Source: Gammaproteobacteria bacterium (GTDB taxonomy: Bacteria; Pseudomonadota; Gammaproteobacteria; JBCCGL01). From it: a stretch of DNA of 64,000 bases. The position numbers were made by a program, and so were the translations under genes. Under the pieces are notes generated by a model, which was given only the letters and a program-made list of their open reading frames with translations, was not told where the DNA came from and did not search any database. Of this stretch, positions 11,247-64,000 are shown in pieces (position 1 is the first letter of the stretch; each line of letters begins with the position of its first letter). The stretch lies in assembly GCA_965277715.1 (NCBI GenBank), contig OZ255836.1, positions 2,912,001 through 2,976,000 of the forward strand, given 5' to 3'.

Positions 11247-12610
11247 GATTGTTCCCCTAAACCTGCTTCTATTTTATTCAGCCGTTTTAAAGCCTCGCCA
11301 ATGCCTTCGACAATGGGCCGCACAGAGGCCCGCGCTACTGTGTCGAGGTCTTCGGCAAACCGTTGCACACGCGGCTTATCCAGATCGAAGTGCTCTGAGA
11401 GCAACGCCTGGGCCGCTTGTACTGCGCTGAGAAAATCAACCTGATCACGGCGTAGAGCGGCGATTTGTGCGCGTTGTAGGGCGAGCTGCAACGCGGCGCG
11501 TTTGCCCAGTATTTGGGTTTCGTCTAATGCGGGGTTTTCGAGGGGCAGTGAAGTGTCTGGTGCCGGTTTTATCACGACGTGCTGTTTGAGAAAAGCTTTG
11601 ATCGATTGTTTGATTTCATTGCCAATACCCGGATTGCCAGTATCCGTCTCGGCGGGCGTGTCGGTCTCTGTTTGGCTGGCTGGGGTTTGTTCGGTCTCGA
11701 CGGGACCCGCTTCGCCCTTTGTGTCTGCTTTTGCCGCTTGAGTGGTGTACAGCGCCAGGCTGTTGCCGCGCCGGGCGAGTTGAATCAGGGAGAGCACCAC
11801 GCCTTCAATGTCTGGCCGTGGGGCGCTGCGCAACTGCGCAATCTCTTCGGCCAGTGCTTCGCGCACCGGCAGCAGGCTGACATCCGCCAGAGAGTGTAGC
11901 TGCGCATCAGCGGCACTGCTGGCCGCCGCCGCCGAATCGAGGTCGGCAGCCAATAACAGTCGATGCTGTGCCATTTTCAGCAGGTAGCGGGTTTCGGCAA
12001 TCACCCAGGCGCGGTCGCTGCGCGAGCCGGTTTCCTGGAGCACTTGCACGGCATCCTGCAATTTATCGATGCGGATACCGGTACCCGCAGCGCGCTGTTT
12101 ACTTTGCTCCGTGATGGCATCCAGGTCTTGCTGCAATGCTTTGAGCTGTGGCCGTATATCCAGCTCGTCGATGCGGTTTTTTTGTTGGGTGGCCTGTTCA
12201 GTCGCCTTTATGTTTTGAGTATATACTTGATAATATAGGTATATACAACCAGCAATTGCTATCAATGCCAACAACAGGGCCAACAACGCCAGCGCAGTGG
12301 TAATACGGCCTTTGCGGGTTTTTTCCGCAGGTGTTTTGCCGGTGGTTGTTTTCCCTGTATCTGTTTCTCCCGTACCTGTTTTCCCTGTGGCCGCTTGCTC
12401 ATTGGCAGCGGGCGTCGAGGGTTTCGGTGGAGTGTCTGTAGTGGCCATTGGAGGCGTGGTTTGTGTTGCCAGGTTATCGTTATCGGTTGCTGGGGCAGTC
12501 GGTTCGGGCGCACTATCGGGCGCCATTGAATTTTCTGAGGCGACATTTTCCACAGAGGGTTTATCCGTGTCTGGATCAGGGCTTTCCGGTTGATGTGGTT
12601 TAATCTTCAT
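11243..12610 (-). CDS. hemX: HemX membrane protein
   Basis: TM helix plus coiled coil, WVIAETRYLLKMA; operon context. Confidence 0.85.
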   Translation of the reverse strand: MKIKPHQPESPDPDTDKPSVENVASENSMAPDSAPEPTAPATDNDNLATQTTPPMATTDTPPKPSTPAANEQAATGKTGTGETDTGKTTTGKTPAEKTRKGRITTALALLALLLALIAIAGCIYLYYQVYTQNIKATEQATQQKNRIDELDIRPQLKALQQDLDAITEQSKQRAAGTGIRIDKLQDAVQVLQETGSRSDRAWVIAETRYLLKMAQHRLLLAADLDSAAAASSAADAQLHSLADVSLLPVREALAEEIAQLRSAPRPDIEGVVLSLIQLARRGNSLALYTTQAAKADTKGEAGPVETEQTPASQTETDTPAETDTGNPGIGNEIKQSIKAFLKQHVVIKPAPDTSLPLENPALDETQILGKRAALQLALQRAQIAALRRDQVDFLSAVQAAQALLSEHFDLDKPRVQRFAEDLDTVARASVRPIVEGIGEALKRLNKIEAGLGEQS

Positions 12611-13458
12611 TTGCTTCCATCGGTGGATAAATGGGCCTGCTGGAATGGGCCTTGGGTATCGGCCCATTCCAGCAGGCTGTTGGCAAAGCCTGCCGGATCT
12701 GGTGATTGGCTCGGTATCGCGTGTTTAAACCCGTGAGCCTGAGCCAGCGCCGCCACGCGCAAGCCCGGCGTAAACAGTGGCAGTGCCCGCAGGGTGTCAG
12801 CCGCAGCGGCGGGCCAGCAGGCCAGCAGGTTTTGCAGCGTTTCACCACTGCCGACGGTAACCGCGTGCAAAGGCCGGGCCACGGCCAGGCGCAACTTCTC
12901 AGCACAGTCGGCAGGTTGGCAACGTCGGTACACCGCAACATAATCTACCTTTGCGCCACGTTCAACCAGCTTATCACGTAATAACTCCCGGCCACCCTGG
13001 CTATGCACCCCCTGGCCATGCACCCCCTGGCCATACCCCCCCTGGCCGCGCACAATGAGCAGGTGTTTCCCCTGTACGTGCGTAAGCGCATCGAGTGCCA
13101 GTAATGCCTCGCTGTGGTAGCCATGTGAGGGGGTGATAACCGTGTCGACGCCTGCACGCTGCAAAGCGCTGGCCGTACCGACACCAGGGGCAAACACGGT
13201 GTGCAGCGCCAGTGAGCGCAGTGGGGTTATCGCGTTGGCGTATTCCACTGCATTGCGGCTGATAAAGATAACCGCATCGTAGTCGGCGCTGTTCGATAGC
13301 GTGTTTCGCTGTTGTGCATTAGCGGGTACACCAACAATTTCCAGGGTCGGCACGCACACGGCAACCCCACCGTGTTGATGAACCAGCGTAGCGAGCGGTT
13401 GTACCTGATCATCGGGCCGGGTGATCAATATGTGCAGATTGGCAAGTCGGGCAGGCAT
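12607..13458 (-). CDS. hemD: Uroporphyrinogen-III synthase
   Basis: ILITRP, IFISRNAV, SEALL, VYRR. Confidence 0.92.
   Translation of the reverse strand: MPARLANLHILITRPDDQVQPLATLVHQHGGVAVCVPTLEIVGVPANAQQRNTLSNSADYDAVIFISRNAVEYANAITPLRSLALHTVFAPGVGTASALQRAGVDTVITPSHGYHSEALLALDALTHVQGKHLLIVRGQGGYGQGVHGQGVHSQGGRELLRDKLVERGAKVDYVAVYRRCQPADCAEKLRLAVARPLHAVTVGSGETLQNLLACWPAAAADTLRALPLFTPGLRVAALAQAHGFKHAIPSQSPDPAGFANSLLEWADTQGPFQQAHLSTDGSK
12995..13047. repeat. In-frame 15-bp tandem repeat inside hemD
   Basis: ccctgg at 12995, 13010, 13025, 13040; encodes GQGGY-GQGVH-GQGVH-SQGG. Confidence 0.9.
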
Positions 13459-51035: not shown

Positions 51036-51524
51036 TTATGAATTTGCAGTGTGTTTGTTGTTGAGTGCCGCCAGTATGGTTGGGTGTACAAAGCCACTGA
51101 CATCGCCATTCAAACTGGCGATTTCCCGCACCATACTTGAGGAGAGGAATGCATATTCCTGCGCGGCAGAAATAAAAACAGTTTCAACACCAGGGCACAT
51201 TTGGCGGTTCAGGCCCGCCAACTGCACCTCGTATTCAAAGTCAGACACTGCCCGCAGGCCACGGACAATGACCTTTGCCTGCCACTGCACGGCACACTCA
51301 ACGAGCAGGCCCTTAAAGCTTTTCACTTCAACATTCGGTAAATCCTGAACGACCTCACGCGCCAGCATCTCACGCTGCTCCAGCGCAAAAAAAGGGCGCT
51401 TATCTGGATTGTAAGCGATGGCGACAATAACGCGATCAAACATCTTCGCTGCACGTCTCGCCACATCGATATGCCCATTGGTAATCGGATCAAAAGTGCC
51501 GGGATAGATTGCTGTAATTGTCAT
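51036..51524 (-). CDS. coaD: Pantetheine-phosphate adenylyltransferase
   Basis: YPGTFDPITNGH, RGLRAVSDFEYE, SSSMVRE. Confidence 0.96.
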   Translation of the reverse strand: MTITAIYPGTFDPITNGHIDVARRAAKMFDRVIVAIAYNPDKRPFFALEQREMLAREVVQDLPNVEVKSFKGLLVECAVQWQAKVIVRGLRAVSDFEYEVQLAGLNRQMCPGVETVFISAAQEYAFLSSSMVREIASLNGDVSGFVHPTILAALNNKHTANS

Positions 51525-52156
51525 ACCTGCCTACTGTCATTTCATCAGCGGCAAGATTGCATGATTTCACCGTTTTCGACAACTCATTTAGTTAGAATTA
51601 ATTTAGGGCACGCCCTCGACGTAAGCACTCATTTATCAACCGTGTCGGCATACGAATTTGGGACTGAGTGGCACTGATAGCAGTAAACGCCATTAATATT
51701 TCCGGCGCAGCACTGTGACTAAACGCCAGCTTGATAAAAACTGGTTTAAAAAAGCAAGAGGGTCAGGCTTGAATGGCACTTCCTTAAGCTGTAAGTATTT
51801 GAAGTAATTACAAAAAAAGCTGGTTCTATGGTAGGTTATTTGTTGCCAACACAAATACCCTTGATCCCACAGGAACCAGCCATCATGCAGAGTAATGTAA
51901 AAGTCAACATTCTTCAACGTCGCATCAAAAGCCGAGCTCAATCCTCGGATGCATTGAGTTTTTATCACTTGCTGACATCCTCTCAGTTACTTACGAAACT
52001 GGAAGAATTACAACCGGATTTTCGAGCGCGTCGCTATCCTCCTCTAGACACCTTATCGCTGTTTTTATACCAAACAATGAGTGCAGATCAGCCCTGCCAA
52101 CAAGTTGTCAACACACTCGCTGTACAGCGATTAAGTGAAGGTTTATCAGTGAGTAA
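51179..52156 (+). repeat. 978-bp direct repeat copy A (coaD 5' part, promoter, IS4 left part)
   Basis: Matches 53756-54733 at constant offset 2577 with ~18 substitutions (hand count). Confidence 0.92.
51771..52156 (+). pseudogene. Truncated IS4-family element (left end and transposase 5')
   Basis: gaatggcacttccttaagc terminus; ORF 51828-52205 nearly identical to the N-terminus of 54405-55850. Confidence 0.88.
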
Positions 52157-52223
52157 GAGTTCCAGGAACAGGCATCAAATAAAGTATATTCCAATTCAGA
52201 AATGAGCCTGAAGGAGAGGGTAA

Positions 52224-52704
52224 TTAAGTCCCGGTCTTGAGGCGTTCATGAAATTGTTGGAAGAGTTTGTTTCGTGCTGAATGGCGTATTTCAACGGCTT
52301 CGTTGTCTGTCATTTCACGGGCAAATTCATCCCGTTTTTTAAAGGTCATCCCTTTTTTCAAGTATTGACTGGGGCGAGGGAGTGAGCGGAATTTCTCATA
52401 GGGTGTCATCCTATCTTCATAACGATATTTTTTGTGTTGTTTACCTTTGTCATCGGTCACGGTGGAAGGGAAATAGCAGGGGTGGTGGAAGTTGAGATAA
52501 CGGTGGAGAGGGCCGCTGTTAAGATCAGTAAATTGTTCAGCATACTGTTGTGGTATATGGCTGTAGCCATAGAGTTTGCGGATAACAGACCCATTTTTGC
52601 TTTCCACCAACCCGTTGTCGTTACTGTGTCGAGGACGTGATTTGGTGAGTTTAATACGCAGTTTTTCCAGTAGTTCAGCCACACTGTAGTTGATGTATTC
52701 ACCC
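52224..52704 (-). pseudogene. C-terminal fragment of an integrase-core (rve) transposase
   Basis: GEYIN...TKSRPRHSNDNGLVESKNGSVIRK...TPYEK; now in frame behind the RAYT. Confidence 0.75.
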
Positions 52705-53702
52705 CCAAAAAGGAAAAGGGGGCAATCGTATTTAATATTTTTCAAACGGTTGCAAACCTGCTCAAACACGCCCTTCAAGCTGCCGTCTGACAGCCCACTC
52801 TTTACATAATCAATTGCAGGAGAAAGGCTACTAACACGACTATATACAAACATATCAACCAGCGTTTTTAACGGCATATCTCCCAATTGCTGACAACAAT
52901 ATATCGCTACTTTACGAGGCAGATTCGCCCGTTGTCTCCCCCGCTGTCGCGTAAGTACATCACTCGCGTTAACGCCAAACACCGCTGCCACTGCATCGAC
53001 TATAGCTGCACCGTTTGGCTTGTCCGTCACAATACGGGACAAGTCCCCCGATATGTGCATCGACTCCCGGTTTTCGGCAATATACGTCTTGAAGGATTTG
53101 TCACCCAGTATCGTCGCCACATTGCCTTTGTTATAAAAACGGCCAATGTCCTCATCAATACCTTGACCAACATATGCCTTATAAGCAACGTAACGTTGTT
53201 TAGCACCGAGTGCACTATGGGTTGCCTCTCGATACAACCATTCCGGTGCTTTGGCTTGGTTGATGTAAGCGTGGTAACTCGACCAGGAATAGCTATCGAG
53301 CTTATCCGCTGTTACACCCTTTACTTCTATTGGGTTACGATGAATGTAACGGCTTAAGGGTAATAAGTAGTCGTCTGCATCCACAATAATCGCTTTATAA
53401 CGACTGCGAAAAAGAGGCCCATCCATGCGTCTAAGCCGGTTGTAGCGTTGTGTGTAGATACCATTGATATGCCGCATGATGCGATCCAGATTAGCACGAG
53501 GGGTTTCGATCAATAGATGATAATGATTACCCATCAAACAGTAAGCGTGGGTGTAGGCATCAAAGCGTTTATGTGCTTCATCGAGCGTTTGTAGAAATGC
53601 TTGGTAGTAAATTTCGCCATGAAAGATGGTCTGTCTGGCTTTGCCACGATTCATAACGTGGTAGTAGGCATTTTCGTATTGTATTCGAGTAGGTCTAGGC
53701 AT
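52224..53702 (-). CDS. REP-associated-type tyrosine transposase (Y1/HUH) with C-terminal DnaA_C-like HTH, reading through into the rve fragment
   Basis: MPRPTR...YHVMNRG, HAYCLMGNHYHLL (HUH), YIHRNP, YSWSSY; native part ends near 52720. Confidence 0.85.
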   Translation of the reverse strand: MPRPTRIQYENAYYHVMNRGKARQTIFHGEIYYQAFLQTLDEAHKRFDAYTHAYCLMGNHYHLLIETPRANLDRIMRHINGIYTQRYNRLRRMDGPLFRSRYKAIIVDADDYLLPLSRYIHRNPIEVKGVTADKLDSYSWSSYHAYINQAKAPEWLYREATHSALGAKQRYVAYKAYVGQGIDEDIGRFYNKGNVATILGDKSFKTYIAENRESMHISGDLSRIVTDKPNGAAIVDAVAAVFGVNASDVLTRQRGRQRANLPRKVAIYCCQQLGDMPLKTLVDMFVYSRVSSLSPAIDYVKSGLSDGSLKGVFEQVCNRLKNIKYDCPLFLFGGEYINYSVAELLEKLRIKLTKSRPRHSNDNGLVESKNGSVIRKLYGYSHIPQQYAEQFTDLNSGPLHRYLNFHHPCYFPSTVTDDKGKQHKKYRYEDRMTPYEKFRSLPRPSQYLKKGMTFKKRDEFAREMTDNEAVEIRHSARNKLFQQFHERLKTGT

Positions 53703-53752
53703 CGTTTAAATTTATACTATTTTGAAAATATTAAATAGGATTGACCCCTTTT
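52714..53752. mobile_element. RAYT gene bracketed by ~32-bp inverted repeats ending in GGGG(T/G)CA
   Basis: aaaagggggcaatcgtatttaatatttttcaaa (52714-52746) vs reverse complement of tttgaaaatattaaataggattgacccctttt (53721-53752). Confidence 0.8.
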
Positions 53753-54101
53753 ATTCAGTTTCAACACTAGGGCACATTTGGCGGTTCAGGCCCGCCAACT
53801 GCACCTCATATTCAAAATCAGACACTGCCCGCAGGCCACGGACAATGACCTTTGCCTGCCACTGCACGGCACACTCAACGAGCAGGCCCTTAAAGCTTTT
53901 CACTTCAACATTCGGTAGATCCTGAACGACCTCACACGCCAGGATCTCACGCTGCTCCAGCGCAAAAAAAGGGCGCTTATCTGGATTGTAAGCGATGGCG
54001 ACAATAACGCGATCAAACATCTTCGCTGCACGTCTCGCCACATCGATATGACCATTGGTAATCGGATCAAAAGTGCCGGGATAGATTGCTGTAATTGTCA
54101 T
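53751..54101 (-). pseudogene. coaD: 3'-truncated second copy of coaD
   Basis: First ~115 codons of coaD, cut 3 bp from the RAYT inverted repeat. Confidence 0.9.
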
Positions 54102-54733
54102 ACCTGCCTACTGTCATTTCATCAGCGGCAAGATTGCATGATTTCACCGTTTTCGACAACTCATTTAGTTAGAATTAATTTAGGGCACGCCCTCGACGTA
54201 AGCACCCATTTATCAACCGTGTCGGCATACGAATTTGGGACTGAGTGGCACTGATAGCAGTAAACGCCATTAATATTTGCGGCGCAACACTGTGACTAAA
54301 CACCAGCTTGATAAAAACTGGTTTAAAAAAGCAAGGGGGGCAGGCTAGAATGGCACTTCCTTAAGCTGTAAGTATTTGAAGTAATTACAAAAAAAGCTGG
54401 TTCTATGGTAGGTTATTTATTGCCAACACAAATACCCTTTATCCCACAGGAACCAGCCATCATGCAGAGTAATGTAAAAGTCAACATTCTTCAACGTCGC
54501 ATCAAAAGCCGAGCTCAATCCTCGGATGCATTGAGTTTTTATCACTTGCTGACATCCTCTCAGTTACTTACGAAACTGGAAGAATTACAACCGGATTTTC
54601 GAGCGCGTCGCTATCCTCCTCTAGACACCTTATCGCTGTTTTTATACCAAACAATGAGTGCAGATCAGTCCTGCCAACAAGCTGTCAACACACTCGCTGT
54701 ACAGCGATTAAGTGAAGGTTTATCAGTGAGTAA
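53756..54733 (+). repeat. 978-bp direct repeat copy B
   Basis: See copy A. Confidence 0.92.
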
Positions 54734-55913
54734 TACGTATACAGGGAGTTATTGTAAAGCGCGACAAAGGCTGCCAACCCCCCTCGTCTCAGGGCTTGCC
54801 CGTTGTACAGGCGAGTGTGTGGCGAATGAAGCGGCCAGTCACTGGCACTGGCAAGGGCGTTCAGTTAAATTGGTTGACGGCACCACTGTGACAATGCCCG
54901 ATACGCCTGAAAATCAGGTAGTTTATCCGCAACAGTCAGGCCAGCAAGTGGGGATCGGTTTTCCTCTTTGTCGCTGGGTAGGAATTATTTGTTTAGCCAG
55001 TGGTGGTGTTCTCGATGCGGCAATGGGTCCTTTTAAAGGTAAGGGAGCGGATGAGCAAACGTTATTGAGAAAAATACAAAATGCGCTTAAACCGGGTGAT
55101 ATTGTGGTGGGTGATGCCTATTTTGCGGGTTATTTTTTTCTAGCAAACCTTATAGAGCAAGGAGTAGACGGTGTATTTGAGCCGCATGGTGCGCGGCGTA
55201 AATCCACAGATTTTCGAGAAGGCAAAAGGCTTGGATCGAAGGATCACCTGATTTGTTATACAAAGCCCAAGAAGAGACCAGAGTGGATGAGCGAAGAAGC
55301 CTATGAAGCGGCTGCTGATGAAGTGGTTATACGTGAACTGAAAGTGGGTAAAAAACTGTTGGTGACAACGTTGTTATCAGTTAAATCGGCGTCTAAAGAG
55401 GCGCTTAAACAGCTCTACAAAGAACGCTGGCATGTCGAACTTGATTTACGCCATATAAAAACGACAATGAAGATGCACACCTTCCGTTGTAAGACGCCAG
55501 AAATGGTTGAGAAGGAAATGTGGGTACACATATTAGCTTACAACCTTATTCGCTTATTAATGGCGCAATCTGCCTTACTAGTGGACATACTGCCTCGACA
55601 GATAAGTTTTAAGCATACGTTACAAATTTGGGTAGCGTATCGTTATCAGAAAGGCGGTAGCCCTCTGGGTAGTGATAAGGTGTTGGCGCTATGTGCGTTG
55701 ATTGCAGAAAACTGTGTGGGTAATCGACCGGGGCGTATTGAACCAAGAGTGGTTAAACGAAGACCCAAACCGTATCCTTTATTGATGCAGCCAAGGGACG
55801 TGGCCAGAAGTGTTGTTAAAAAATATGGCCATCCCAAAAAACAGAAATAGGTCATTTACAATGAAAGTACTTCCATATTTTTCATGTACTTAGAGCTTAA
55901 GGAAGTGCCATTC
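54348..55913 (+). mobile_element. Complete IS4-family insertion sequence
   Basis: TIRs gaatggcacttccttaagc / gcttaaggaagtgccattc; flanking ~10-bp duplication ggggcaggct. Confidence 0.9.
54462..55850 (+). CDS. IS4-family DDE transposase
   Basis: LVDGT, GDAYF, YKERWHVELDLRHIK (Y-R-E-K), RIEPRVVKRRPK. Confidence 0.92.
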   Translation: MQSNVKVNILQRRIKSRAQSSDALSFYHLLTSSQLLTKLEELQPDFRARRYPPLDTLSLFLYQTMSADQSCQQAVNTLAVQRLSEGLSVSNTYTGSYCKARQRLPTPLVSGLARCTGECVANEAASHWHWQGRSVKLVDGTTVTMPDTPENQVVYPQQSGQQVGIGFPLCRWVGIICLASGGVLDAAMGPFKGKGADEQTLLRKIQNALKPGDIVVGDAYFAGYFFLANLIEQGVDGVFEPHGARRKSTDFREGKRLGSKDHLICYTKPKKRPEWMSEEAYEAAADEVVIRELKVGKKLLVTTLLSVKSASKEALKQLYKERWHVELDLRHIKTTMKMHTFRCKTPEMVEKEMWVHILAYNLIRLLMAQSALLVDILPRQISFKHTLQIWVAYRYQKGGSPLGSDKVLALCALIAENCVGNRPGRIEPRVVKRRPKPYPLLMQPRDVARSVVKKYGHPKKQK

Positions 55914-56100
55914 GGGGCAGGCTTATTATTCACCATACAACGACTAATACGTATAAAAACAGTGATTTCCAGCAAGAAATATAAGAAATAACTGCCTTGA
56001 TGGGATGGACCCGCTCCCTTTGAATCGGCATCACAATGTGCCAAGATTGAGCGGTAACACAACCAATCTATTATCACCTAATAAAGGTAGGAGCGAGTCC

Positions 56101-57126
56101 ATGAACGAGAATATCACCCGATTGGGTATTGATCTAGCCAAAACTATTTTTCAAGTGTGTGGTGCTAATAAACACGGTAAAGTGGTGTTTAATAAAAAAC
56201 TCAAACGCGATCAGCTACCGTCTTATATCGCCAATGTACCGGCCTGTGAGGTGGTGATGGAAGCGTGTGCGACGTCCAGTTATTGGTCGCAGGTTTTCAC
56301 ACGCTACGGCCACACCGTCAAACTCATTAACCCAGCCTATGTACGCCCTTACGTTAAAACAAACAAGAACGATGCAGCGGATGCAGAGGCCCTGTGTGAA
56401 GCAGCCTCACGTCCGAGTATGCGATTTGTTCAGCCCAAAACACCCGACCAACAAGACAGCCAATTATTCCACCGGGTGCGCAGTCGGCTAGTGTCAAAAC
56501 GGACGAGTTTAAGTAATCAGATAAGAGGGTTACTGGGTGAGTATGGGCTGATTATTCCGGTGGGTATTCACCACGTTCGCCAGCACTTGCCTGCGCTTTT
56601 AGAGGATGCTGAAAATGCCTTGTCAGCCACAGCACGTGAAGTGTTCAGTGCTTTGTATGATGAACGAGTGGAGATTGATAAACGCGTAACACACTACACA
56701 AAACGGTTAACCCAGTTGAGCAACCAGCATGAGCGCTGTCAACAATTAAAAACACTGCCGGGTGTAGGGCCTCTGGTCGCCACTGCCTTGTTTACAGCAA
56801 TGGGCGATCCGGGTTTTTATAAAAACGGGCGTGAGTTTTCCGCCTTTTTGGGTCTCGTTCCTCGTCAATATAGTTCGGGGGGCAAAACACAACTCAAAGG
56901 TATCAGTAAACGCGGGGACGAACACGTGCGCACTTTGTTGATACAGGGGGCGCAAGCGGCATTAAGTCGAATGCCTAAACACGATGATGGGCTAAGTCGT
57001 TGGGCCTGTCGTGTCAAAGCACGTCGGGGCCATTGTGTGGCGGCGGTGGCATTGGCCAATAAGCTCGCCAGAATTAGCTGGGCGGTAGCGGCTAATAATA
57101 CAACTTACGTGCATAAAACAGTTTAA
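56101..57126 (+). CDS. IS110-family DEDD recombinase
   Basis: GIDLAK, MEAC, KNDAADA, GLVPRQYSSGGK, VALANKLAR. Confidence 0.95.
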   Translation: MNENITRLGIDLAKTIFQVCGANKHGKVVFNKKLKRDQLPSYIANVPACEVVMEACATSSYWSQVFTRYGHTVKLINPAYVRPYVKTNKNDAADAEALCEAASRPSMRFVQPKTPDQQDSQLFHRVRSRLVSKRTSLSNQIRGLLGEYGLIIPVGIHHVRQHLPALLEDAENALSATAREVFSALYDERVEIDKRVTHYTKRLTQLSNQHERCQQLKTLPGVGPLVATALFTAMGDPGFYKNGREFSAFLGLVPRQYSSGGKTQLKGISKRGDEHVRTLLIQGAQAALSRMPKHDDGLSRWACRVKARRGHCVAAVALANKLARISWAVAANNTTYVHKTV

Positions 57127-57189
57127 TAACATCGTTGAAGATTTCTTACCACGAGGTAGCGAAAGAGCAGTAAAGGGTATAACAGGTTA

Positions 57190-57335
57190 AACCGGCTCAG
57201 ACAGAACCTGGAGGGGGTCATGGTCTTCACAGACCGATTGCTTGATGAGGTGTCTGAGCACGGTTCCCATTATGGCTCTGGACGGATAAACAAATACAAT
57301 CCGTCCTATCGAGAAGCCGGATATATGACTGCTAA
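57190..57335 (+). ncRNA. Predicted bridge RNA/seekRNA of the IS1111 element
   Basis: Two stem-loops with internal loops carrying target-matching (gggggtca, ttgcttga) and donor-matching (cccatta, atatatga) segments; RNA ends approximate. Confidence 0.7.
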
Positions 57336-57458
57336 CCTTATTTACTGTGTCTGCTCTGAACGCTAAAAAATGAATGAACGATTAAAAAATTGTTGAATTT
57401 AACTGCGGGTCCATATATGACCCCTTTTTTTCATTCTGCTATGGTGTATTATTGAGAA

Positions 57459-57803
57459 ATGAAAGAAAAAACACCTATACGGGTTACTCTTCGACTGCCC
57501 GCTGATGTGCATGAAGAGATAGCCTCCGCATCCTCCTTGGCTGGCCTTAGCCTGAATCAAGAGATAGTGTCACGCCTCAAGGAAACGCTTAGGCAAGATA
57601 AATTCTTGGTCGATTCCAATGAATGGATAAATAATCACACGGCTACTTATGATGATTTGTTAGCCTTATATGAAACAGCTACTGTAGAGGTGGAGGAGTG
57701 GAAAGAAAAAGACTACAGCGTTACAACTGCTATGCAAGGTTTTGAGGCTGTAAGCGATATTAAAAACCGCCTTGCCGCTATAGAGAAAAAGCTAGATAAA
57801 TAG
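57459..57803 (+). CDS. Arc-family ribbon-helix-helix DNA-binding protein
   Basis: RVTLRLPADVHEEI...SLNQEIVSRL. Confidence 0.85.
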   Translation: MKEKTPIRVTLRLPADVHEEIASASSLAGLSLNQEIVSRLKETLRQDKFLVDSNEWINNHTATYDDLLALYETATVEVEEWKEKDYSVTTAMQGFEAVSDIKNRLAAIEKKLDK

Positions 57804-57820
57804 CTTTAGGAGCGTGACTA

Positions 57821-58657
57821 GTGGAAATAGCCTATAGCACTATTGAGAAATCCCCAGTATCCATCCATGTCTTTTGCAAAAAGTCTGACGCTGAAATAGA
57901 AAAATTGCGGAGATCATTGTTATGTCCCAAGTGTGAAGTTAAGGCGTGGTTCCGCAAAAAATCAAAAGATGGTAAATCAGCCTGCTTTAATGCGTATCAT
58001 GCAGAAGGCTGTACTGCATCGACACAAAAGCATCAAATAAAAAATAATACCGAAGTTGTCGAAGACGTAAGGCAAATCATTACAAACAATGATACGGTGG
58101 ATTTAAATTTCGTTGTGTATAGCAGTCCAATTGCTGATGGTGAAAATACGTTTCAACAGTCACTTACTATTAAAAACGTCGATTCTGCAAGTTCTCGACA
58201 CAGTATTACACCAGCAATAGAAAGAAACCAAACAAGAAGGTTATCCTCTATATTAAAGCTACTTACAGGCTCGGAGGATTTTGCCAAATCTAATATCAAG
58301 ATTGACACAGGGCCACCAGCTAAACATCCATATTATGCTAGAAATCTGTTTGTGAGCTTTGATGCAATAATCGAAGAGCATATAGGGAAATGGCGCGGTT
58401 TTTGGGGTGTGATCAGTCATGCCAATGAAGAAGTTACATGGTTAAATATTGCAAACAGTTTAGATGTTAGCATCCCTATATCAGCTATTAAGGCTTATTT
58501 GTTAAAAACGTTTAGGATAATGGAAGCAGAAGATTTGGCTGGGGCGCAAGTGCTAGTCTTTGGCTATCTCAACGTTTCAAAAACCAAAGCTAAAAAATAT
58601 TTCATAAAGCTTCGGAATAATAATCCTGCTCATATTTTTCTCAAACTGGACAACTAA
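57821..58657 (+). CDS. Hypothetical protein with N-terminal Zn-finger-like motif
   Basis: CPKC...C..AYHAEGC; AT-rich; RBS aggag. Confidence 0.75.
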   Translation: MEIAYSTIEKSPVSIHVFCKKSDAEIEKLRRSLLCPKCEVKAWFRKKSKDGKSACFNAYHAEGCTASTQKHQIKNNTEVVEDVRQIITNNDTVDLNFVVYSSPIADGENTFQQSLTIKNVDSASSRHSITPAIERNQTRRLSSILKLLTGSEDFAKSNIKIDTGPPAKHPYYARNLFVSFDAIIEEHIGKWRGFWGVISHANEEVTWLNIANSLDVSIPISAIKAYLLKTFRIMEAEDLAGAQVLVFGYLNVSKTKAKKYFIKLRNNNPAHIFLKLDN

Positions 58658-58663
58658 CCTCAA

Positions 58664-60631
58664 ATGGAAATAGAAAAGAAATTTAAAGTCCAAGTCCAAA
58701 AGGATCATCTGTCTAAGGTGGCTTCTGGAAAGCCAATAATCGGGTTGTGTGAACTTATTTGGAATGCTTTTGACGCTGACGCAAGCAATGTAAACGTTTA
58801 TTTTAATGAAGGTCAATTTGGTGTTGACCGGGTAATTATTTCCGACGATGGCACCGGCATTAAATATGGTGAAGCTGAAAAATTATTCATTGGTTTAGGT
58901 GGTTCGTGGAAGTCCAGTGGCAAGCAGACAGAAAAAGGGCGGTTTTTACACGGCCAAGAGGGTCAGGGGCGCTTCAAAGCTTTTACCATTGGGCGTGTAA
59001 CTGATTGGAAAGTTGTTTATAAAGAAGACAACAAGTTCTATGAATACACGATTGAAGGTAAAGCGGAGGCTATTGACGAATTTTTATTAAGTTCTAATAA
59101 AGATTCAGACCAACGCAAAACTGGTGTAACTGTCGAAATAACTGAAATCAATAAAAATTTCCATATCCTTGATGAAAACAAGGCACTTGAAAAACTTGCA
59201 CCAGTCTTTGCCTTGTACCTTAAAAATTATAGTGGGGTAATCCTCCGTATAGGTAGTCAAAAGCTGGATGCTTCAATAGCTATCAAGGATATTAAAAGTA
59301 TTGATCTGCCGGCATTGAGTATTGAAGATAAGGAACATTTTGTAAGCGTTGAAATAGTAGAGTGGAACGGTATTTCAGCGCGCGAAATATGGTTTGCTGA
59401 TTCAAAAGGCTTTCCACTTGAATCTTATGATAAACAAGTTCGAGGTATTGGAGAGAGTGGATTCAGTGCCTATATAAAATCGGACTACTTCCGTGAATTA
59501 AAAAACAAGGATTTATTATCATTACGCGACCTTGAAGCAAGCATTAGCGCCTGCTGCGAGACAGCAATCAATGCGGTCAAAGAACACTTCTTATTAAGGG
59601 CCTTGGAACAAGCAAGAAACCAAATTGACGAATGGAAAGATGAAGAAATCTACCCGTTCAAGGGTGAACCTGTGTCCCCTATTGAAGATGCTGAAAGAAA
59701 AATTTTTGATATTGTCGCCATTAATGTAAATAAAAGCCTTCCAGATTTTAAAAATTTAAATAAAAAATCTAAACAGTTTCAGTTAAGAATGCTGAAACAG
59801 GCGATAGAAAAAAGTCCTGAAGACCTTCAGATCATTATGACTGAAGTTCTAAATCTACCAAAAAATACACGGGAAAGTTTAGCTGAATTACTTCAAGGAA
59901 CAAGTCTTTCGTCAATTATTAATGCATCTAAGGTGGTGTCAGACCGAATAAAATTCATAACCGGTTTAGACCAGCTTGTTTTTAATCACAAAGACAACTT
60001 AAAAGAACGTACACAACTGCATAGAATCTTAGCTCAAAACACTTGGATTTTTGGTGATGGATTTACTTTGTCGGTTGACGATCAAGCACTAACTGAAGTT
60101 CTTAAACAACATGCTTCTTGCTTGGAAAATGATGTTGTAATTAACGATCCGGTAACAAGAGTTGACGGTCGTCGCGGCATTGTTGACTTGATGTTATCAA
60201 GACAACTGCCCCGAAACCGTGCCGACGAATTAGAACATTTAGTTATAGAGTTGAAAGCCCCTAAAGTTGTTATTGGTAAAAAGGAAATTGACCAGATAGA
60301 AAGTTATGCTTTTGCTGTTTCTAATGATGAACGATTTAGAAGTCTTAATACAAAGTGGGACTTCTGGATCATTTCAAATGACTATGATGATTATGCAGAA
60401 CTCAAACTTGAGAATGACAGCTTTGAATATGGCGTGATTTATAAAACCAGTAAAAAGCGTAATGTTACTATCTGGCTAAAAACATGGTCTGAACTAATTG
60501 CTGAAAATAAACACCGTCTTGAATTTATTCGTGACAAGCTAAATTATAATGTCGATAAAGAAAGCGCAATGAATCACCTGAAATCGACATATTCTGAATA
60601 TATTGATGGTGTGGTTTTGGAAAATAAATGA
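58664..60631 (+). CDS. GHKL/MORC-like ATPase fused to a C-terminal PD-(D/E)xK nuclease
   Basis: ELIWNAFDA, DDGTGI, GQEGQGRF; C-terminal VDLML...VIELKAP...QIESYA. Confidence 0.85.
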   Translation: MEIEKKFKVQVQKDHLSKVASGKPIIGLCELIWNAFDADASNVNVYFNEGQFGVDRVIISDDGTGIKYGEAEKLFIGLGGSWKSSGKQTEKGRFLHGQEGQGRFKAFTIGRVTDWKVVYKEDNKFYEYTIEGKAEAIDEFLLSSNKDSDQRKTGVTVEITEINKNFHILDENKALEKLAPVFALYLKNYSGVILRIGSQKLDASIAIKDIKSIDLPALSIEDKEHFVSVEIVEWNGISAREIWFADSKGFPLESYDKQVRGIGESGFSAYIKSDYFRELKNKDLLSLRDLEASISACCETAINAVKEHFLLRALEQARNQIDEWKDEEIYPFKGEPVSPIEDAERKIFDIVAINVNKSLPDFKNLNKKSKQFQLRMLKQAIEKSPEDLQIIMTEVLNLPKNTRESLAELLQGTSLSSIINASKVVSDRIKFITGLDQLVFNHKDNLKERTQLHRILAQNTWIFGDGFTLSVDDQALTEVLKQHASCLENDVVINDPVTRVDGRRGIVDLMLSRQLPRNRADELEHLVIELKAPKVVIGKKEIDQIESYAFAVSNDERFRSLNTKWDFWIISNDYDDYAELKLENDSFEYGVIYKTSKKRNVTIWLKTWSELIAENKHRLEFIRDKLNYNVDKESAMNHLKSTYSEYIDGVVLENK

Positions 60632-60885
60632 ACCAAGTCCAGGCCATTGACGAACAAAAAACTATTGAAGATTACCGGGAGCTGATCAATGAGGTTTCAG
60701 GTAGCCCAACGTCTGAAAATATCCGAAAACTAGCATTGTGGGTTTACTATATCGCTCCCAAGTTACCCAACGAGGTTGAAAGCGGTGTTTGGGAAAGCCT
60801 ATATACCGCGTTACCTATTCAAGCTGTTATTGAAATTAACGAGCTAATTAGCAATAACTCTCAACCCCCGGTTACTAGAAACTAG
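60628..60885 (+). CDS. Small hypothetical protein
   Basis: Start overlaps the upstream stop (ATGA). Confidence 0.55.
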   Translation: MNQVQAIDEQKTIEDYRELINEVSGSPTSENIRKLALWVYYIAPKLPNEVESGVWESLYTALPIQAVIEINELISNNSQPPVTRN

Positions 60886-61029
60886 GCTTAAATTTCTGGT
60901 TGCGGCCTGTTCTATAAAATCAGACCACCAGCACATAACCACTTTGCGGCGTTCCAAATAATCCGCACGATTATAAGCGCGGCGTACGTCATTGCTGTCT
61001 GCATGGGCGAAAGCGGATTCTATAACGTC

Positions 61030-61282
61030 GTAAGCGCCCTTAAATCAGCCTCTATTCCAAGGTAATGTCCAAAACGACATGCCAAGGTAGCAAGGCCTCT
61101 CTCTTTTCAAGAGTATCGGCACTGCCGATATGATTAAGGGCGTGCAGTATGTACGCATAGGGTTCAAGCCCATTAGCTTTGGCCGTTTCGATCAATGAGT
61201 AACATGTGGCACTGGCATGGGCGCCACGGGTTGAATCGGCAAACAACCAGGCTTTTCTACCCACGGCAAAAGGCCTGATAGA
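61030..61282 (-). pseudogene. IS66 right end with TnpC C-terminal fragment
   Basis: IRPFAVGRKAWLF, SLIETAKANGLEP, LLPW; GTAAGCG terminus at 61030. Confidence 0.85.
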
Positions 61283-61287
61283 AGCAA

Positions 61288-61379
61288 GGGGGTCAGGCTT
61301 ATTATTCACCATACAACGACTAATACGGATAAAAACAGTGGTTTCCAGCAAGAAATATAGGAAATAACTGCCTTGACCC
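61288..61379 (+). repeat. ~93-bp GGGGTCA-bounded unit, copy 2
   Basis: gggggtcaggc...gccttgaccc; direct repeat of the unit at 55914. Confidence 0.85.
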
Positions 61380-61539
61380 GAATGGCACTTCCTTAAGACG
61401 TAAGCAACTGATAGTAAAGAGTTTATTTATTCTTTCTAAGAAAAAAAATGATATTTTGAAAGTTGCCGCCAATGATAACCGGGATAGTTTTACAAATATT
61501 GCTTTCAAGAACCGGTGTTTGTCAAGGTAGTTGTCCGTT

Positions 61540-62622
61540 TTACTGTGCTACTTGCTTTTCAATTCCATTGTGCTTTTGTCTCATGGCCAAGCCTTCCTTT
61601 TCCGGGTTTAACCACACCCCCGATACCGGTTCGAGGTGTTTAATATCCTGGCTCCAGCGTTCAGGGTGTTTGGCCTTTGCTTGTTCATAAACTGCTTTTC
61701 TGGCTGCCAGTATCGCGTGATCTTCGCCTTTATGACGCGAGGCTGGTGTCACAAACCCAATGCCGCTATGGCAATGAGAGTCGTTGTACCATTGCACAAA
61801 TCCATGCACCCAGTTTCGGGCAGAGGCTAAACTATCAAATGGCTTTGACGGATAGGCAGGCGTGTATTTTAAGGTTCTAAACAGACTTTCTGAATAAGGA
61901 TTATCATCGCTTACCGATGGCCTGCTAAACGAAGGTATCACACCCAACCATTGCAGTTTTGCTAACATGGTAGCACCTTTCATCGGGCCACCATTATCCG
62001 CGTGTAATACCAATTGACTCTGGCTGCATCCCTCCGCTAAACAGGCACGCTGGATCAGCGCCGCTGCCAGATCAGCCGATTCACTGTCATGCACTTCCCC
62101 GGCAACAATTTTACGACTGTAAATATCCATCATCATGTAAAGCCGGTAAAACCACCCGGTTATGTTCGATTTCAAAAAGGTAATATCCCAAGACCACACC
62201 TCGTTTGGCCTTGATGCCAGGTAGCTGTTAGGTTTGTGCCGTTTTTTAGGCGCCGCCGCCTTACCTCGCCGCTGCAGTTGGTTTTCCGACTTTAACACCC
62301 GATAGAAGCTTGACTCTGATCCAATATACACACCTTCATCCGCCAATTTGGGCACAATTTGCGAGGGGGGTAGCGCTTGGTATTTCGCTTCATTACAAGT
62401 GGTGACGATCAATGCCCGCTCTTCTGCTGTGAACTTATTACCAGGCGCCTGTCGATGAGCGCTGGGTCTGCCATCAGCACGGACAGTACCCGCGTTTGCC
62501 CAGCGTCGGTACGTCTTAGGGTGTCACTCAAGCACTTTGCACGCTTTGCTTAATGTAGCGCCAGCGACAACGGCCTCTTTGATTAAACGGATACTATTTT
62601 GGCGATCTGAATGGCAGGTCAT
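61540..62622 (-). pseudogene. IS3 orfB (integrase core) with premature TGA
   Basis: WSWDIT, LHADNG, SESLFRTLKY; in-frame TGA at 62524-62526. Confidence 0.8.
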
Positions 62623-63113
62623 TCGTCCTCTCCCTCCCCCCAGATCGCTTGGGCCTTTTTTCTAAGCACCAGCAAAGCGGCTGTTTCGGCTAACGCTTTC
62701 TCCTTTCGGTGCAGGTCTTGTTCGAGACGTTTAATACGTTTATCCGCTTCTCTACGACTGGTTTGTAAACGTTTCGTTTGGGCGCGATCCCAGTCATTGG
62801 CTTGTTCACAAGCCATTCGCCATGCCTTAATCTGATCAGGGTACAAACCACGATGACGGCAATAAGCTGAAAGGTCTGTTTCGCTTAATGACGCACTTTC
62901 CAGAACCGCTGAAAACTTATCCGAAGAACCCCAACCTGCTGGTGTCAAATCGCCATCTGGCATGAGTTCGCCTTTCGCTCTTGCTGGGGCTCGCCAACTA
63001 TAAAGCGTACCTTGTGCAATGCCTTCTTCTTTGGCTAACCGGGAAATTGTCTGATTGTTCGGCGGCAGCATCTTCTTTAAAACAGCGGCCTTTCTTTCTA
63101 TTGGATAACGCAT
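62619..63113 (-). CDS. IS3 orfA (HTH)
   Basis: LAKEEGIAQGTLYSWR, KALAETAALLVLRKK. Confidence 0.85.
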   Translation of the reverse strand: MRYPIERKAAVLKKMLPPNNQTISRLAKEEGIAQGTLYSWRAPARAKGELMPDGDLTPAGWGSSDKFSAVLESASLSETDLSAYCRHRGLYPDQIKAWRMACEQANDWDRAQTKRLQTSRREADKRIKRLEQDLHRKEKALAETAALLVLRKKAQAIWGEGEDE

Positions 63114-63270
63114 ACCACTCTCTCTTTGCCTCCTGTAATAACTTATTGAATCCCAATTTAGGGAGGGGGACAACTACCCTGACACAGGGGGGAACCATAT
63201 GCCAAGTTATCTGAACCAAGCACATAATACCAATACTTTCAAATACTTACAGCTTAAGGAAGTGCCATTC

Positions 63271-63330
63271 GTGCCTGTCCTATTTTTCTTCTGTTTTTCC
63301 TATTTCTATATAGTGCCTGTCCTATTTTTC
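63271..63330 (+). repeat. 18-bp direct repeat gtgcctgtcctatttttc x2
   Basis: 63271-63288 and 63313-63330; variant (GGACAGG) of the island motif. Confidence 0.7.
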
Positions 63331-63356
63331 CTAGGTCTGTAAAAAGACTGCGAGCT

Positions 63357-63437: not shown

Positions 63438-63464
63438 GTTGGCCTCAGTTAAATTAGATATGCA

Positions 63465-64000
63465 GGTTCTTCCCCGGTTTGTGTGAGGTTATAGTATTTC
63501 ATCCCCCCTTTGCTATTGAGAGACTCCGGTGCTATCGAGCCTTGAAGAACACTACAGCCAGCTCCTGGGCCTGACAGATGACTGGTCAGTGACATCAGTT
63601 GATTTAGACCCTTCAGGGTTAAAAGTATCCATTTCGTTGGCATTTAGCGGCAACCACGGCCCTTGTTCGCACTGTGGCGAAGTGAGTCCGTTCTATGATC
63701 ACCGTTCACAAGAGCGATCCTGGAGACACCTGGATACTATGCAGTTTGAAACGCGCCTACACAGTCGCATTCCCCGAGTAAATTGTCTGGAGCATGGTGT
63801 TAAAAGTATGGTGTTACCCTGGGCAAGCAAGCGCAGTCGTTTTACGTTGTTGTTTGAATTATTTTCCATCAGGGTGTTGCAAGCCTCACGTAGCGTCGAA
63901 GAGGCGCGTAAGTTACTGGGGCTTAGCTGGAACGCAGTGGAAGCCATCAAAGCCCGCGCTGTCGAGCGGGGACTTTCGCGTCGGGAATTGGTGACAATTG
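63465..64000 (+). mobile_element. ISL3-family element (left part); transposase from 63529 runs off the window
   Basis: GGTTCTT terminus; CSHCG zinc finger, RSWRHLD, PRVNC..HGV, LPWA..SRFT..FE. Confidence 0.88.

Follow-up and report, generated by a model that had tools for sequence, protein, structure and literature searches.

A TIRtron and two miniature relatives within a pile-up of insertion sequences beside coaD in a sponge-associated gammaproteobacterium

Elements at the coaD locus

We analysed a 64,000-nucleotide (nt) stretch of a gammaproteobacterial genome (assembly GCA_965277715.1, contig OZ255836.1, positions 2,912,001 to 2,976,000; hereafter the window), and within it the region from 51 to 63.5 kb, where a Y1/HUH transposase gene of the TIRtron/TIRYT kind lies among the insertion sequences (ISs) that crowd around coaD. 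A first-pass annotation of the same DNA had proposed that this enzyme captures or shuffles cargo between repeats ending in a GGGG(T)CA motif at a fixed place beside coaD, much as an integron does. The host is a sponge-associated bacterium, and its coaD locus is a heap of nested mobile elements. As read from open reading frames (ORFs), Pfam and NCBIfam matches, repeat finding and direct reading of the letters, the order on the + strand is coaD, IS4', ISNCY', the TIRtron, coaD', a complete IS4-family element, a first miniature unit split by an IS1111-type element, an AT-rich operon, IS66', a second unit, an IS4 remnant with an IS3-family element inside it, two copies of GTGCCTGTCCTATTTTTC and the start of an ISL3-family element (Table 1; a prime marks a truncated copy). 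Rfam models gave zero matches at gathering thresholds between 51000 and 64000. For a comparison between strains we used the contigs of four sponge metagenome runs, X1, X2, X4 and X6, and what is said below of joints, loose ends and letter differences applies to those listed for these contigs. Contig depth is not copy number, and X6 may be the source sample, in which case its contigs are partly non-independent of the assembly.

Table 1. Features of the coaD locus in window coordinates
Feature	Position	Strand	Details
Intact coaD	51036..51524	-	162 amino acids (aa); Pfam CTP_transf_like, E 4.4e-26, residues 6-134
978-bp duplicated block	51179..52156 = 53756-54733		coaD 5' part, upstream region, first 386 bp of IS4
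IS4 5' part (IS4')	51771..52156	+	in-register identical to 54348-54733; inverted repeat from 51771; broken off at 52156/52157
ISNCY-like (rve-type) transposase 3' fragment and element end (ISNCY')	52157..52713	-	tblastn matches to ISNCY-family features from query residue 6
TIRtron	52714..53752	-	1039 bp; TIRYT gene between 33-nt terminal inverted repeats (52714-52746, 53720-53752)
Native TIRYT ORF	53702 down to 52728	-	325 aa
coaD', truncated second copy	53756..54101	-	first ~115 codons; CTP_transf_like profile 1-107 of 133; adjoins TIRtron right tip; shared upstream region to 54337
Complete IS4-family element	54348-55913 (with duplication 54337..55924)	+	transposase 54405-55850
Unit 1, left and middle part	55914..56000	+	87 nt, 95% identical to 61290-61376
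IS1111-type (IS110-family) element	56001..57417	+	within unit 1 right tip: CTTGA / IS / TGACCCC
Unit 1 right tip	57418..57428	+	TGACCCCTTTT; X1 and X6 contigs diverge after 57424 or 57428
AT-rich four-gene operon	57429..61029	+	guanine-plus-cytosine (GC) content 37-41% vs about 50% before the island
Arc-like protein gene	57459-57803	+	Pfam
278-aa protein gene	57821-58657	+	no family named
655-aa GHKL-ATPase protein gene	58664-60631	+	with HSDR_N-like part; Pfam
85-aa protein gene	60628-60885	+	no family named
IS66 3' fragment (IS66')	61030..61276	-	247 bp; element end and last ~75 transposase codons; contigs diverge before 61030 and after 61276
Unit 2, uninterrupted	61282..61378	+	from GGGGTCAGGC to GCCTTGACCC; AAGCAAG precedes, as at unit 1
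IS4-derived remnant	61379..63270		ends 61379-61511 and 63192-63270; inverted repeats; adjoins unit 2 right tip
IS3-family element in IS4 remnant	~61512-63191	-	orfA 62619-63173, orfB 61540-62412; NCBIfam transpos_IS3, E 8e-48
GTGCCTGTCCTATTTTTC, two copies	63271..63330	+	42 bp apart, directly 3' of IS4-remnant right end
ISL3-family element, start	63465..64000	+	Pfam Zn_ribbon_ISL3 and HTH_Tnp_ISL3; continues past window
Motif sites	51760; 52718; 53742; 54337 and 55914; 57418; 61289; 61374		aGGGTCA; GGGGGCA; TGACCCC; GGGGCA (both); TGACCCC; GGGGTCA; TGACCC
GGACAGG-variant sites of the first-pass annotation	63271 and 63313		GTGCCTGTCC, twice
One-sided junctions	~52706-52714; 53752/53756; 61276/61282		ISNCY'/left tip; right tip/coaD'; IS66'/unit 2

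The first-pass annotation was right that a Y1/HUH enzyme gene lies between inverted repeats whose ends are the motif. The two 33-nt repeats are 88% complementary, and an extended 20-nt form of the repeat matches the window at just these two places (0.00 matches in shuffled sequence). The encoded protein matches Pfam Y1_Tnp with an E value of 2.1e-14 (54.1 bits, cut-off 23), and its HUH motif (H60-Y61-H62) and Tyr119 are invariant across eight aligned sequences, that of the window and seven homologues. Residues 233-285 match Bac_DnaA_C with an E value of 7.9e-07, at 29.4 bits slightly below the gathering score of 31.5, and the same C-terminal stretch has weak matches to NCBIfam DnaA models. A tip of the element lies 46 nt 5' of the TIRYT start, and the two tips, GGGGTCAA and GGGGGCAA, agree with the consensus GGGGWSAS at 7/8 and 6/8 positions. 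On sequence grounds the gene and its repeats belong to the TIRtron/TIRYT family (TnpA-Y1 subclass 2.1.2). A classical REP-RAYT/REPIN label was rejected for three reasons: the repeats have no GTAG or CGTC head; single arms and the whole unit, folded as DNA, gain nothing over shuffled sequence (z -0.91 to +0.15), so that a long REPIN-type hairpin was dismissed; and the protein reaches 55.3 bits against NCBIfam REP_Tyr_transpos, for a cut-off of 80.

Both the family and its GGGGWSAS tip are already known, from 2013 and 2018 (PMC3733652, PMC6006769). Di Nocera, De Gregorio and Rocco (2013) described TIRYT and TIRtrons with the tip GGGGWSAS and with repeats 'in dimers or clusters' (PMC3733652), and Quentin et al. 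(2018) placed the family in TnpA-Y1 subclass 2.1, with a DnaA_C tail in 2.1.2 and the tip GGGG[AT][CG]A[CG] (PMC6006769). The GGGG[AT]CA-type repeat that the first-pass annotation had quoted is a published one.

The copy in the window is damaged. Its left tip reads GGGGGCA, corresponding on the coding strand to a change from GAT TGA to GAT TGC at 52725-52727; the TIRYT stop codon is lost, and the ORF extends to 52224 within the ISNCY-like fragment, giving 492 aa. A single TGA-to-TGC change thus both damages the conserved tip and fuses the TIRYT gene to ISNCY'. Where the stop is the TGA of the tip, the end of the gene and the end of the element share the same bases. There are other copies: three X6 contigs diverge after 53752 and carry the TIRtron with other flanks, repeat back-joints occur at 53752 in X1 and X6, and the ratio of summed contig depth between the TIRtron and the coaD flank is about 3-17 across the four runs, depth being no copy number. 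The several flanks in X6 and the raised depth are indirect signs of a putative mobility of the element or of putative DNA cleavage by its enzyme.

In a scan of public genomes 599 stretches matched, 583 of them encoding TIRYT relatives. The best 77 loci were retained, from Gammaproteobacteria, Nitrospirota, Desulfobacterota, Acidobacteriota and others, and among these the top full-length identity was 63%. A GGGG[ATG][CG]A tip lies 30-70 nt 5' of the start codon in 47 of the 72 loci that have at least 70 nt upstream. In the 33 loci viewed closely, the distance from tip to start is mostly 43-53 nt, and 3' of the gene there is a TGACCCC tip, often in tandem copies. The TGA of that downstream tip is the stop codon in nine of the 33 (L004, L006, L007, L009, L013, L018, L019, L022 and L023), and in several further homologues the stop lies within a few bases of it. 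Inverted pairs of tips also recur without a gene: one genome (G006) holds three such pairs with an exact spacing of 102 bp, shared arms of 24-28 nt, A-runs and T-runs, built like the units of the window. Across four genomes the tip pattern was counted 21, 9, 6 and 30 times, against 4, 3, 2 and 1 for the reversed control; a fifth genome gave 0. G006 is a metagenome-assembled genome (MAG) of the Alteromonadaceae; at L080, L081 and L082 the dimers of terminal inverted repeats are ~115 bp long, and the ~60-bp interior of one of them is inverted between identical arms.

Tips of the TIRtron and its miniature units as boundaries and insertion targets

What the first-pass annotation picked out as a motif, (A)AAGGGGTCA, forms the tip, or outermost end, of terminal inverted repeats in three elements: the TIRtron itself and two miniature elements of its kind, each a ~100-bp dimer of such repeats. 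The two direct-repeat units that had been noted are real, and their build is clear: they run from GGGGTCAGGCTTATT... to ...AATAACTGCCTTGACCCC, with an A-run before and a T-run after, and two TIRtron-type arms face each other around ~60 bp. The units and the IS ends occur in several contexts in the contigs of the four runs, and a 25-nt stretch of the unit had 0 matches in a metagenome scan. A reading of the units as attC sites was rejected, the ends being by eye not of the GTTRRRY type.

Two unrelated kinds of IS have landed on these tips. The complete IS4-family element (NCBIfam transpos_IS4_1, E 5.8e-64, 216 bits, cut-off 115) has 33-nt inverted repeats (91%) and is flanked by a target duplication of 10-11 bp, GGGGCAGGCT(A/T), at 54337-54347 and 55914-55924. 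Unit 2 keeps the uninterrupted target site, AAGCAAGGGGGTCAGGCTTATTATTC (61282-61306), and therefore the motifs at 54337 and 55914 are one tip doubled by the IS4 insertion. An IS4 end also adjoins the right tip of unit 2, and in X6 an IS4 end adjoins the right tip of a TIRtron elsewhere (joint 53740->61373). The IS4 remnant next to unit 2 occurs without its IS3 element in all four runs, as a joint 61508->63192 with five shared letters, GAACC; this ~210-bp remnant may be a repeated miniature IS4 derivative. Beside the left end of IS4, the 12 nt at 51759-51770 and at 54336-54347 show 3 differences, for ~1.7% elsewhere in the duplicated block; this could mean that IS4 entered the tip twice, independently, in different lineages.

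The second visitor is the IS1111-type element (NCBIfam transpos_IS110, E 4.1e-102, 341.8 bits, cut-off 140; Pfam DEDD_Tnp_IS110 and Transposase_20), which has 10-nt sub-terminal repeats, ATGGACCCGC and GCGGGTCCAT. Several contigs diverge directly after 57424 or 57428, so that other IS1111-type copies also lie in tips. NCBIfam calls the IS110 family RNA-guided, and the element is probably RNA-guided as well. Its 3' non-coding region (57127-57417, 291 nt) has no Rfam match and is far more stable when folded than shuffled sequence (z = -4.45, a stability reached by 0 of 200 shuffles); at 57214-57220 it carries GGGGTCA, complementary to the target TGACCCC, a 7-nt match that is weak evidence. In a seekRNA or bridge RNA, this stretch may be the guide that recognises the target. 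IS1111/IS110 elements are said to use a seekRNA, and REP sequences are reportedly a target of this type of element in the case of ISPpu9. In the window the target is a TIRtron-type tip and not a GTAG REP, and an IS4-family element uses the same target. A precedent is Coxiella, where 20 of 21 IS1111 copies lie within the miniature element QMITE2 (PMC5896051); in both cases the end of a miniature repeat houses an IS1111-type element, with part of the repeat on either side.

The remaining elements bring in ends of their own. The ISNCY-like fragment has weak matches to IS3, IS481 and IS21 models and is unrelated to the IS3 orfB of the window; a contig joint 63714-52157 in X1 and X4 marks 52157 as an element end. 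The IS66 fragment matches positions 336-386 of 387 of NCBIfam transpos_IS66 and Pfam DDE_Tnp_IS66_C, and several joints and loose ends fall at 63464/63465, where the ISL3 element begins. In all, IS ends that carry no motif, at 52157, 61030, ~61512, ~63191 and 63465, are backed by contig joints or loose ends.

We then asked how motif and junctions relate. Most of the motif sites of the first-pass annotation are present, but the one given at 55992 is no motif; it reads GCCTTGA and is the first half of the tip split by the IS1111-type insertion. The motif is not enriched as such: GGGGTCA has 11 matches in the window where 6.8 +/- 2.9 are expected, GGGGWCA has 13 for 13.5 expected, and the loose motif occurs at 1.28/kb in the region and 1.18/kb before it. 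What does hold is the coincidence with junctions. Nine of the 16 junctions counted in the region lie within 15 nt of a loose motif, where 10,000 random placements averaged 0.55 and never exceeded 5, and the fragments end near motifs as had been noted (coaD' begins at 53756, ISNCY-like homology at ~52706, at residue 6, and the operon region at 57429, and IS66' is cut at 61276). These nine are non-independent, as they comprise the two tips of the Y1 element, two tips per unit and two further copies, of which one stems from the target duplication of IS4 and the other from the 978-bp duplication. Junctions coincide with tips because tips are element boundaries by definition. Five of the nine are accounted for by the IS4 target duplication and the targeted insertion of the IS1111-type element, and a sixth is the TIRtron's own insertion boundary within the ISNCY-like gene; all seven junctions without a motif are ordinary IS ends. 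IS activity, which the first-pass annotation had named as the competing explanation of its breakpoints, thus covers most junctions; the three junctions between truncated genes and tips, and the operon, fall outside it.

Truncated genes, the operon and the possibility of TIRYT activity

Taken together, these observations make it likely that the locus is an ordinary one, a TIRtron with miniature derivatives inside a pile-up of ISs whose members target the TIRtron tip. Its foundations are firm: which elements these are and where they end, that IS4 duplicated its target, that the tip is conserved throughout the family, and that the elements exist in several copies. An IS4-family element has landed on a tip and duplicated 10-11 bp, producing additional motif copies, an IS1111-type element has inserted within the TTGA/CCCC of a tip, and IS3, IS66, ISNCY-like and ISL3 elements have added junctions free of the motif. 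The truncated ISNCY', coaD' and IS66', together with a strain-specific 2.6-kb duplication, would have arisen as by-products when elements entered these genes and their many copies later recombined homologously. The operon, AT-rich and restriction-like, would be ordinary acquired DNA between two units, and may have been swapped between strains through recombination in the flanking ~90-bp units.

The operon itself encodes little that can be named. Its 655-aa protein has a weak NCBIfam match to the BbrUII/HgiDII restriction enzymes (E 1.8e-12, below cut-off); PADLOC gave just a weak REase_II match for this protein and named no defence system in the operon, and a protein atlas placed it in HATPase_c_3 clusters that are unnamed or generically called 'ATP-binding protein'. 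Promoter and terminator calls in the operon region are not above their counts in shuffles. Strains do differ in this cargo, as the first-pass annotation had anticipated. Both X1 and X6 cover the operon with one 3659-nt contig, whose depth is roughly single-copy; X2 covers it with smaller contigs. X4 has no cover from 57517 to 61023 while its coaD flank is well covered, an absence that we use together with an X4 contig joining 57428 to 61282. Variable cargo with endpoints at the motif, also anticipated, was seen in this one case and weakly, and the case can be explained without a special enzyme.

Several observations weigh against the ordinary explanation. The three truncated genes stop 0-8 nt from an element end, the other half of each gene does not lie across the element, and the contig joints listed include no reciprocal junction for any of the three. 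Since coaD is an essential gene, insertion of a TIRtron into it needs a prior second copy. The X4 contig, with a flank-like, approximately single-copy depth, links the end of unit 1 (57428) to the start of unit 2 (61282) with no shared letters, and this joint is missing from the joints listed for the three operon-bearing runs; endpoints as exact as these are not expected of a random deletion. Furthermore, the arms of the units resemble those of the local TIRtron at only ~14/22 positions by eye, so that the local TIRYT is no more than a candidate cognate enzyme for the units.

The truncated genes and the X4 joint are what would be expected if TIRYT, supplied in trans from any copy, cuts and rejoins DNA at tips, leaving tip-adjacent deletions or one-ended events and capturing or excising DNA between units, for example the 3.85-kb operon segment. 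We nevertheless consider this unlikely. It would give a direct account of the three truncated-gene junctions and of the operon-free joint, without microhomology, in one of the four runs; in addition, the first operon gene begins 30 nt from a tip with no promoter-like site found before it by a simple scan, and extra copies of the repeat lie 0.3-7 kb away in 14 of the 47 tip-bearing homologous loci. In two of the three such loci viewed a gene lies between TIRtron and extra repeat, Lit-like in L038 and with a Peptidase_S74 domain in L069. In the third, L054 (a deltaproteobacterial MAG, 9965-12673), the extra repeat is part of another, convergent TIRtron, and a small DUF7010 gene lies between the two TIRYT genes. 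The layout of the window, however, fits such joining poorly. The operon segment lies outside the repeat pairs with the tips facing it, and the right end of the segment proper is the end of IS66 and not a tip. The X4 joint has 29 letters on one side, other letters may intervene, and both sides are multi-copy sequence, so that the contig may stem from another locus. The repeats of homologues hug the gene, most of them 43-53 nt before it and at most ~100 nt after it, which leaves no space for cargo, and the local copy has both a mutated tip and a fused ORF. The accessible parts of PMC3733652 and PMC6006769 report no activity of TIRYT.

It is likewise improbable that the TIRtron tips, (A)AAGGGGTCA, are active recombination sites at which a trans-acting TIRYT makes one-sided truncations and inserts or excises DNA between units. 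If true, TIRYT activity would here have left its first natural footprint, and HUH enzymes would have a route for moving genes that are not part of a transposon. TIRYT enzymes are widespread, as the 583 related stretches from a single scan attest, and the exact tip-to-tip presence or absence of the operon between strains is a concrete handle on whether they act on DNA in nature.

The more elaborate proposal of an integron-like capture platform finds no feature to support it: there is one candidate cargo, placed outside the repeat pairs, and the orientations of the tips are mixed. Nor does the arrangement of enzyme and repeats suit cargo, the TIRYT gene being 3.7 kb away behind coaD' and IS4. 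The locus is not fixed, given the other flanks of the TIRtron in X6, and the local enzyme gene has a damaged tip and a lost stop codon. Integrons consist of IntI, attI and attC cassettes. The window resembles them loosely, in having foreign genes by short repeated sites near a recombinase-like gene, but it has neither a cassette array in one orientation nor a promoter-bearing primary site, an IntI-type tyrosine recombinase or attC-like sites. IS91 and ISCR elements capture adjacent DNA by one-ended rolling-circle transfer, and an HUH enzyme could in principle read through a damaged end such as the mutated left tip and carry adjacent DNA with it; IS91/ISCR enzymes are, however, of a different HUH class from TIRYT, nothing in the window demonstrates one-ended capture, and we know of no such activity for TIRYT. 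The region does not establish a new mechanism.

The duplicated block, the assembly and related systems

The two copies of the 978-bp block are ~98% identical at an offset of 2577 and have sharp ends in an in-register comparison. The arrangement of block, ISNCY' with TIRtron, and block again appears to be strain-specific. In X1, X2 and X4 the contigs lead without a break from the flank of coaD to 51759 or 51770, and the X1/X2 allele has seven variant positions in common with block copy 2. In X6 the coaD flank contig ends at 51221, precisely where the block copies become identical, and a contig over 53769-54278 stands at about twice the depth of the flank; another contig bridges 52127-52741, and with it the IS4'/ISNCY' and ISNCY'/TIRtron junctions, with 0 differences and at approximately single-copy depth. 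Four routes to the 2.6-kb duplication were weighed, namely tandem duplication in a single step, integration of a circle through homologous recombination, unequal exchange involving two copies of the TIRtron, and an illegitimate join combined with a homologous crossover; each of them would need an extra step.

Could this layout, and that of unit, operon and unit, be an assembly artefact of repeats and mixed strains? The region consists almost wholly of multi-copy elements, and the block copies differ by ~1.7%, like strain differences, with copy 2 sharing its seven variants with the X1/X2 allele. We regard an artefact as very unlikely all the same. The X6 contigs match the assembly through the bridged junctions, the flank end and the doubled depth just described fit a true duplication, and the operon contig is 3659 nt long in X1 as in X6, although X6 is perhaps the source sample. 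Least credible of all is that units and tips are host structures such as terminators or REP-like regulatory hairpins, at which junctions gather because ISs target them: there are A-runs before and T-runs after the tips, and a terminator-like hairpin is called at 57407-57423, but half of that hairpin is IS1111 sequence, the unit as DNA has no folding advantage over shuffled sequence (z = 0.15 and -0.83), and tips flank the transposase gene across many phyla.

A TIRtron with miniature derivatives among tip-targeting ISs, the reading we prefer, agrees with the published family (PMC3733652, PMC6006769) in its ~325-aa Y1/HUH transposase, its helix-turn-helix tail of the DnaA_C kind, its long terminal inverted repeats and its GGGGWSA tip. 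Repeats of the family are likewise found singly, as dimers or clustered, to which the two ~100-bp dimers of the window correspond, with arms that match the TIRtron only partly. The window differs in that S is missing from the last position of both tips, GGGGTCAA and GGGGGCAA, and G stands in place of W in the left one, that the left tip of this copy holds no stop codon, that the tips are targeted by two other IS families and that a strain-variable operon lies between dimers. The tip deviations, the lost stop, the tips as IS targets and the operon between dimers are not described in the accessible parts of these two papers.

REP and REPIN sequences with their RAYT are reportedly GTAG-tagged palindromes, as in the work of Nunvar in 2010, Bertels and Rainey in 2011 and Ton-Hoang in 2012. 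The window shares with them a domesticated-looking Y1 gene, inverted short repeats and ~100-bp doublets; its repeats, unlike theirs, have no GTAG or CGTC head and form no self-palindromic hairpin. The wider meaning of the locus lies in the tip, a short sequence that unrelated IS4 and IS1111 types share as a landing pad, which makes the locus a hot spot of rearrangement within the IS-rich genome of a symbiont.

Among public genomes, the nearest relative of the enzyme is found in G001, with 80% identity over 119 aa at the end of a contig. The coaD region of G001 is on separate contigs and has merely 65-68% DNA identity to that of the window, which makes it unsuited to a comparison of the locus. 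At the far end of the region, the GTGCCTGTCCTATTTTTC pair may be a decayed unit tip, which it resembles by eye.

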